Part shown: positions 8,848 through 10,360 of the stretch, piece after piece
Layout: each line of letters starts with the position of its first letter
Position numbering within the stretch: position 1 is the first letter of the stretch
From: Eledone cirrhosa
Lineage: Eukaryota
Assembly (NCBI GenBank): GCA_964016885.1
Contig: OZ024741.1
Span: 342,364,001-342,428,000, forward strand
Direction of reading: 5' to 3'
DNA length: 64,000 nucleotides
Program-made: the position numbers and the translations under genes
Notes under the pieces: model-generated
What the model was told of the DNA's origin: nothing
The model's input: only the letters and a program-made list of their open reading frames with translations
Database searches by the model: none

Positions 8848-8918
8848 GTATGTATGTATGTATGTATGTATGTATGTATGTATGTATGTATGTATGTATG
8901 TATGTATGTATGTGTATG

Positions 8919-10288
8919 TTCTTCTGGTTTTATAATTTCACAAAGTTCTACCAATAGAGAGAGAGTCGGTTTCTAACATAGACACAAGACTCTCTCATTG
9001 GAATTTACACAACATCAACTAGGTATGTATGCATGCATGTGTAGATATGGATGTTATTGTATGTGTGGATGTGGATGTTTTGAGTTGTATGTGTGCATCT
9101 GTATATGCTTTGTATCTGTACATGTGTATATGTAGTTATTAGATGCAAAACGTTTGGAATGTTTTACATATTTTTACTGTTCCATTAATGGATTGTACTT
9201 GTAGTTTCCTAACTAGTTGTGTTCTTTCTGTTCCTGTGAAGCCTAACTTCTCAAGATTTGTATTGAGGCAGTTACTAACATATCCCAGTGCCCCAACAAT
9301 CACAGGCATAAATCTGAAGGTGTAATCAGGGTGGAGTATCTGCAGATTTCTCATCAGTTCTGCATAAATATTCTCCTTTTCACTAATCTTTGATATTATA
9401 TTGGCATCTGCTGGGCAGCTAATTTCCACTACTGTGCATGTTTTCTTCTCCCTGTCCCATATCATAATATCTGGTCTGTTATGCCTGCATTTTATTGGGG
9501 TTTTTACTGGAACATTCCACCAGTACTCTTTCATATTATGTACATGGATGTCTTCCACATTGTTGTAGCTTTTAATGTGTTTATTATTGGGGCTATCTTT
9601 TTTACGAATTGCATTTTACAGTGTTTTGGCAACTATATCATGCCTCATAGGTAGATAGTACCGCGATGACATCTTTGGACAGCTGCTGATGACATGGGTG
9701 ATATCCTCGATGTTAGTTCTGCAGAGTCTGCACTCGTTATCACATCTAGGTGTTTTGCCTGCATCCCTATCTCTTTTGTGAATCAGGTATTTCGTGCTAA
9801 TCTCCTGTTCTTGGATTGCAAAAGCGTATCCTTCAAAGTGGGAGCCAATATAGCGGTTGTTGGTCCAAGATAGACTACTTTCCTTATCTATATTACTCTC
9901 ACCCTGGAGCTTCCTGGCAACATATCCATGCATGATTTTTTGCTGATAGGCATGCAGTTTTTCATCCATGGATTCATTGCGATACTGCTGAGCGATATCC
10001 CTGGGTGTGAGTTTTTGATTATCACACAGGGAATATCTCTCAAGGAGTTCCTTCCCAACTCTCATGATCTTATCTGTTTCATGCAGATAGACTTGCGCGA
10101 GAAGCGGGCTCCTAGGCTTCGTGGTTCGTAGATGTTGTCGGAGAGATATGATGCGACATTCAAATGTTGTCCGGACTGATGTTAGGCCTCTGCCTCCCTG
10201 CTTACGTTTCAAGTAAAGGCGGTCTATGTCACTGTTGATGTGGAAGTTTCCGGTATTGTTCAGTATTTTTCGAGTTCCAACATCAACT
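8919..10288 (-). mobile_element. 5'-truncated R4-clade RLE LINE inserted in (CATA)n, with one nonsense codon
   Basis: Motifs RLYLKRKQGGRGL, CRLCRTNIEDITHVISSC, RHD and RPDIMIWD..VVEISCP. ORFs 9616-10533 and 9139-9558 are in the same frame, split by a single TAA. (TATG)n lies at 8848-8918 and 10289-10358. Confidence 0.9.
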
Positions 10289-10329
10289 GTATGTATGTAT
10301 GTATGTATGTATGTATGTATGTATGTATG

Positions 10330-10360
<31 letters not shown>

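Follow-up and report, generated by a model that had tools for sequence, protein, structure and literature searches.

Two families of R4-type LINEs in the genome of Eledone cirrhosa, E1 and E2, are mostly inserted in (CATA)n microsatellites, with the repeat on both sides and in one orientation, and within the Dong/R4 group CATA would be a target not described before. The window, meaning the whole stretch of DNA that was analysed (64,000 nt; contig OZ024741.1, positions 342,364,001 to 342,428,000), contains one copy of each on the minus strand. E1 (8919..10287) is a 5'-truncated R4-type RLE LINE reduced to the final 1.37 kb out of 4.1 kb; this copy encodes the region behind the reverse transcriptase (RT), a CCHC knuckle, and a PD..E..K endonuclease, with a single in-frame stop near 9616 and a 3' UTR at about 8919-9138. 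Its 3' flank is (CATA)n (8848..8918, minus strand), read on the plus strand as the (ATGT)n run behind a short element at 8549-8847, and its 5' flank is (CATA)18 (10288..10359, minus strand), with 2 nt (CA) of microhomology at the junction. The copy of the second and younger family, E2 (55367..57597), is 5'-truncated and frameshifted, consists of the final 2.2 kb out of 4.23 kb with RT, CCHC, and RLE, and has (CATA)n at 55327..55366 (3') and 57598..57682 (5'), both on the minus strand, with 5 nt (CATAC) of microhomology at the 5' junction. Given the in-frame stop of E1 and the frameshifts of E2, both are dead copies. A sequence-only reading of the window had described the two elements as 5'-truncated with (CATA)n on both sides in one orientation, and these coordinates bear it out. 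It had also listed MSSRYYLPMRHD, KEYWWN, and VVEISCP as shared signatures, and these are present in E1 and E2 and absent from the Dong-type element of the window, which has LAQTHYKGWRHD, VKVLWDF, and IVDVACP at the same sites and (TAA)n on each side.

That Dong-type element (6467..7714, minus strand), 5'-truncated in (TAA)n and used here as a control, landed in the (TTA)n run of the 3' UTR of an RTE-like LINE (4771..7996, plus strand). The RTE-like LINE, split by this Dong, is itself 5'-truncated; (TATG)25 lies at its 5' junction (4670-4770) and (ATGT)n past its 3' end. We assume the name RTE from the look of the ORF, and presume for this family an APE-type lifestyle; elements of its type are not known to be sequence-specific. 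Runs of TG, TA, TTA, and T follow one another in the RTE-like 3' UTR, and Dong-type and other elements often land in the run of TTA. A short non-coding element follows in two stacked copies that are 96% alike (8013-8528 and 8549-8847; 8013..8847 in all, plus strand), with (ATGT)n behind each; its terminus resembles the RTE-like 3' end, and as judged from this sequence it is likely a non-autonomous partner of the RTE-like LINE. Elsewhere in the window, a 713-codon open frame on the minus strand (30600-32741) has an RT and a GIY-YIG-like end, with more fragments near 17781-18632 and 34968-35288; by its motifs it looks like a Penelope-type element. A 261-codon frame (48291-49076, minus strand) presumably resembles a Tc1/mariner transposase.

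For E1, E2, and the Dong control alike, searches of the 3.0 Gb genome scored 40 copies, of which 40, 40, and 30, respectively, were retrieved with adequate flank. Full-length sizes are about 4.1 kb, 4.23 kb, and 5.2 kb, and the copies match one natural full-length copy at a median of 97.4%, 99.2%, and 99.5% identity, respectively. An open 1,174-codon frame is found in 7 of 13 near-full-length E2 copies, with a 1,173-codon frame in one more, and an open frame in none of six E1 copies. Full-length E1 copies include L091, L096, L097, L099, L100, and L105. The 5' ends of full-length E1 are homogeneous, with ATCAGTC as the first bases (L091, L097, L099, L105, L109), which we take to resemble the initiator motif of internal promoters; the full-length starts of E2 differ by just 1-3 nt. 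At least one additional Dong-type family with a (TAA)n end was seen (L139, L233, L238, L245, L265, L270), and a third in L090.

The association of the two families with (CATA)n, proposed from the window, holds genome-wide and at both ends of the elements. Exact 21-mer counts, which are lower bounds, give at least 5,552 E1 and at least 1,685 E2 3' ends, and CATA lies directly past 4,782 (86%) and 1,511 (90%) of these, respectively. At the 5' end a strict rule was used (at least 12 nt of perfect repeat, no more than 8 nt from the junction). By this rule CATA is present in 29/40 E1 and 35/40 E2 copies, or 64 of the 80 best copies, compared with a background of 0.16% over 57,000 positions from 20 arbitrary 10-kb stretches. 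TATG and (CA)n were found at 0/80 junctions and (TA)n at 1/80, with backgrounds of 0.35% for (CA)n and 3.6% for (TA)n; TAA was found at 1/80 (L094, where the TAA units are element sequence). The Dong control has TAA at 20 of 24 resolvable 5' junctions and CATA at none, with 6/30 copies running off the locus.

These counts bear on whether random insertions were simply kept, or mis-joined in assembly, in repeat-rich DNA. The genome is indeed very microsatellite-rich, but we regard this explanation as extremely improbable: strand polarity is strict (no TATG junctions), the 3' phase is fixed in thousands of copies, the commoner (TA)n and (CA)n are avoided, and the Dong control occupies a different repeat.

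Among the 16 copies that miss the strict rule, two, hit by a later insertion or deletion, run beyond the edge of the locus, two have a CATA array at the true 5' end (L104, L109), six have CATA arrays that are compound, degenerate, or interrupted (L006, L099, L047, L054, L057, L128), two have a weak or compound array (L094, L095), and three have no array at the junction (L101, L107, L056). The last, L093, is a full-length E1 preceded by at least 34 nt of (TCAG)n, which matches the element's first bases and suggests that slippage took place at the 5' junction. A second set of E2 copies, chosen for protein similarity, has CATA at 13 of 17 resolvable 5' junctions, and 13/30 ran off the locus. Since this set and the 80 best copies are biased to long, young copies, length-unbiased sampling was done by taking each fifth 3' end of those listed for contig C1, with two already-sampled places swapped for the next. 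E2 junctions were strict in 14, loose in 2, and other in 4 (n=20), and E1 junctions strict in 9, loose in 3, and other in 7 (n=19), one copy being too short for alignment. Strict CATA is therefore present at 23/39 unbiased junctions, or 28/39 with the loose rule included, over backgrounds of 0.28% and 1.6%, respectively; 11/39 show CATA by neither rule, 7 of them E1. Whether most copies have a non-(CATA)n 5' flank was examined, and they do not, either among the best copies or in the unbiased sample. The CATA association is strong without being absolute, and E1, the older family, shows it less. Contigs from four other sequencing runs gave just three loose E2 ends in a TATG/ATGT repeat, too few to serve as evidence.

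The two joins differ in precision. The 3' register is fixed as element|CATA, the first unit being CATA in 37/39 E1 and 53/56 E2 copies (counts that leave out one E1 and 13 E2 copies whose element end has no search-motif match). The second unit is CATA in only 31/39 and 44/56, respectively, and in 9/95 copies the perfect 3' run is just one unit (4 nt) long. Such single-unit runs mean that no more than one unit need be RNA-derived and that a long element-made tail is unnecessary. Clean 5' junctions were found in 12 of 30 truncated E1 copies and 19 of 29 truncated E2 copies, and 1-5 nt of microhomology is present at 11/12 and 17/19 of these, respectively, with means of 1.6 (E1) and 1.5 (E2) vs 0.8 in simulation (P = 0.013 and 0.007). 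The clean junctions fall in three phases in E1 and in all four in E2, which rules out a fixed 5' register; of the common register on both sides that had been read from the two window copies, the 3' part stands and the 5' part falls. Because the first CATA may be RNA- or target-derived, the position of the nick cannot be read from the junctions.

The same arrays have other tenants. Across 30 copies of the RTE-like family (L231-L260), 14 have a visible 5' junction; (TATG)n is present at 9 of these and (CATA)n at none, and the majority of visible 3' ends lead into an ATGT-type repeat. The RTE-like element, tried as a non-specific negative control, thus failed in that role, being itself TATG-associated; the family is an opposite-strand co-tenant of the same CATA/TATG arrays. 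Past the 3' array, 23/78 E1 and E2 copies have an RTE-like or short element on the opposite strand, met by its 3' end, and 18/78 a same-strand E1 or E2; past the 5' array, a same-strand E1 or E2 was found in 15/78. Several head-to-tail stacks of E1 and E2 are linked by short CATA runs (L024/L029, L104, L109, L116, L119, L130). The earlier argument that a repeat at a truncated 5' junction indicates target choice is therefore kept in part. A two-sided repeat identifies the landing site, as the mirror pattern of the RTE-like family implies, but that pattern and the (TCAG)n of L093 tell against reading the means of choosing from it.

The arrays likely pre-existed the insertions, because their impurities match across the inserted elements. 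In the 52 of 78 copies with both arrays at least 20 nt long, the TA-run impurity of the 5' array correlates with that of the 3' array (rho = 0.50, P = 2e-4); the CA-run impurity does not do so significantly (rho = 0.20, P = 0.16). The median 5' array is 80 nt over the two families together, and odd higher-order units occur on both sides of L030, L047, L048, and L057. In the window, the (ATGT)n of the first short-element copy is uninterrupted and the run of the second contains E1. Pre-existing arrays with head-to-tail stacking are the simplest reading. The repeats could instead be made by the element, a short CATA target being duplicated or the RT slipping, with arrays then growing by replication slippage. 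Consistent with such growth are the lengths of the 5' and 3' arrays, which correlate (rho = 0.41), and L093, whose (TCAG)n at a full-length 5' end matches the element's first bases; a target-site duplication is also unmeasurable inside a repeat. We nevertheless think element-made repeats improbable, as compound arrays retain their pattern on both sides, the sister short element in the window has the same (ATGT)n without an E1, 23 of the 78 copies sit in runs directly behind an opposite-strand RTE-like or short-element 3' end, and long 5' arrays are already present in E2 copies that are young (99% alike).

The protein offers candidate parts for recognition of the repeat. The E2 protein (P0001) matches Pfam RVT_1 (E = 4e-25), and its C-terminal residues C985-C988-H997-C1002, R1014, P1064-D1065, E1078, K1096, and Y1100 align with Dong-type proteins, the RLE motif being HNRPD..E..K..Y. 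A structure model (pLDDT 84.6, from a 39-sequence alignment) has a three-helix N-terminal domain at 27-79 (helices 27-40, 47-58, and 66-79), behind which a disordered linker leads to the compact body of RT and RLE. The N-terminus of P0001 aligns with that of the TAA Dong protein P0002, and the modelled domain fits the Myb/SANT-like domain described for R4/Dong elements (PMC7998251). E2 accordingly has architectural features of the R4 clade: a single ORF with a non-LTR RT, CCHC, a PD..(D/E)..K RLE, and an N-terminal three-helix domain. The Myb-like domain and the RLE active site are kept across the clade of E1 and E2 relatives. This clade has no basic residue just ahead of the conserved RLE Tyr (EDIY, ENIY, and TTTY vs INRY and LSKY in Dong types; P0001 1085-1100), an alignment difference that may bear on target choice.

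R2 elements insert in 28S rDNA and have N-terminal zinc fingers, and the nick-and-prime steps are known from R2. R2 proteins are the best structural matches of the P0001 model (R2Bm, R2Tg; 9dou, 9nl3, 8gh6), the closest solved folds to the E2 protein, and the source of the mechanism assumed here; unlike R2, P0001 shows no N-terminal zinc fingers in its sequence, alignment, or model. By analogy, the E1/E2 protein probably recognises (CATA)n, cuts one strand of it, that with TATG, always in one phase, and primes reverse transcription there. The N-terminal Myb-like domain and the RLE would read the repeat, as proposed from R2 biology. As in R2, the 3'-OH on the nicked TATG strand would prime cDNA at the RNA 3' end, and the cDNA would be joined to the upstream array wherever synthesis stops, through 1-5 nt of pairing. 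CATA would be left on both sides after each insertion, so that later copies could stack head to tail. The pattern that backs this explanation is two-sided, strand-fixed CATA, a fixed 3' join, and a variable 5' join with short microhomology.

Tail-homology priming would dispense with a CATA-specific protein: an RNA ending in CAUA would anneal to the TATG strand where a long array is nicked or frayed. What keeps it alive, and its main support, is the RTE-like family on the other strand of the same arrays, where the same rule would place an ATGT-tailed element, in keeping with the TATG at its 5' junctions and the ATGT-type runs past most of its 3' ends. The nearly invariant first CATA unit could also be RNA-coded, and the TAA Dong here has a conserved AATAACAATAA end in 26/30 copies. 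Against it, one unit alone is fixed, the repeat being broken after 4 nt in 9 of 95 copies; four-base pairing would, we infer, be insufficient alone to pick long arrays from 3 Gb; and the Myb-like domain and RLE active site are kept across the clade. We consider tail-homology priming unlikely and favour recognition of (CATA)n by the protein.

Among the matches listed, about 85 proteins are 40-64% identical, after which identity falls to about 33%, and the closest named protein is from Argonauta hians (64-68% identical). A quick tree (46 rows, 754 columns, LG+G4) was made from hand-chosen rows, comprising 34 of the 120 listed homologues, one shorter hit, and own-genome and metagenome rows. It is weakly rooted (65) on two unclassified proteins and its rows include no named R4, Dong, or Rex6 references; the membership of E1 and E2 in the R4 clade is proposed from their architecture. 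E1 and E2 fall in one 27-row clade (SH-aLRT 100, stem 0.45) that is sister to a group with two TAA-flanked families and insect proteins, which upholds the earlier view that both belong to one branch set apart from TAA Dongs. E1 shares 51% identity with E2, and both share about 31% with the Dong of the same genome. They are not sister families (AU p = 3e-7, in a test performed after the tree was seen on a pair set by the earlier reading). Named clade members come from Argonauta and Hydractinia. A metagenome contig from another host (L152, a single contig) contains a full-length member, within a 14-row subclade (support 100), with (CTTA)n at both contig ends (1-100 and 4822-4871) and about 1 kb of 3' sequence past the ORF. 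Three other branch members (L151, L153, L154), whose element ends are not delimited, have no repeat within a flank of up to 700 nt. The C-terminus of L152 as query found E2 alone among 30 loci examined out of 150 matches, and tblastn over about 200 genomic loci found just decayed E1/E2 relatives and further Dong-type families; other families may exist in both cases. No matches were found in the prokaryotic genomes scanned.

The branch had first been described as apparently retargeted. We do not adopt a switch from TAA, as the branch, on a long stem, is placed beside the Dong/TAA group as its sister and has hydrozoan and other non-octopod members, and E1 and E2 are non-sisters within it; it is an old tetranucleotide-associated R4-type branch. 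The CATA preference is likely old, being common to two non-sister families 51% identical, with a relative in another host that has (CTTA)n at both ends. A wider reading is offered tentatively: an undescribed mollusc and cnidarian sister clade of Dong/R4 whose proteins would read tetranucleotide targets, with CATA in use since before the E1/E2 split and a one-base shift between CATA and CTTA.

Comparison with known systems places this target outside those described for Dong. Like Dong types, E1 and E2 have one ORF, a Myb/SANT-like domain at the N-terminus, RT, CCHC, RLE, microsatellite insertion, and frequent 5' truncation; unlike them, their target is CATA (CTTA in one relative), not TAA, and their clade has Y[LM]YLP[LMV]RH, with E in most cases at the last position of PD..(D/E). 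Waldo elements belong to the R1 clade, have an APE endonuclease, and are found in insects. Dong, DongAg, DongBg, and ostracod Dong1/2 are described as targeting TAA (PMC3812793, PMC7998251), and WaldoAg1, WaldoAg2, and WaldoFs1 as specific for ACAY repeats (PMC3812793). The Waldo target is essentially the same as that of E1 and E2, ACAT being a rotation of CATA, and the match is convergent target use. An HDV-like ribozyme is described for Bombyx Dong (PMC3774820), whereas no Rfam match was found in the 5' ends of E1 or E2, and our own descriptor, which has no positive control, found none in E1, E2, or the TAA Dong. In Octopus, the annotation of O. vulgaris lists 51 Dong-R4 consensus families, 5 of them recently active (PMC13282606), and a full-length Dong consensus is given for O. 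bimaculoides (PMC9115989). The available text of these two papers gives no target sequence for the Dong-R4 families, which probably include relatives of E1 and E2. No CATA target is named in the available text of PMC4640811, PMC5035012, PMC3774820, PMC13586686, or PMC13580325, and the literature search, whose scope left out Repbase, Kojima and Fujiwara 2004, Biedler 2015, Fell et al. 2025, and Xiong and Eickbush 1993, found no report of a (CATA)n R4/Dong element. We rather doubt that a CATA target is already listed, although the tables of Fell et al. 2025 or Repbase are places where it might be.

The many young open-frame copies allow a direct test of what determines the target, be it the N-terminal Myb-like domain, the RLE, or pairing of the RNA tail, a question for RLE retrotransposons that bears on the retargeting of R2-type insertion tools. 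If the wider reading offered above is true, TAA, CATA, and CTTA would form a natural series for mapping how Myb-RLE targets change. In such species, microsatellite markers made of CATA/TATG often adjoin multi-copy elements and call for caution. Insertion into CATA arrays explains why retrotransposons of this genome stack with one polarity. A deep branch of R4 type that uses CATA and CTTA would widen the known target range of a group in which Dong has been described as TAA-specific.
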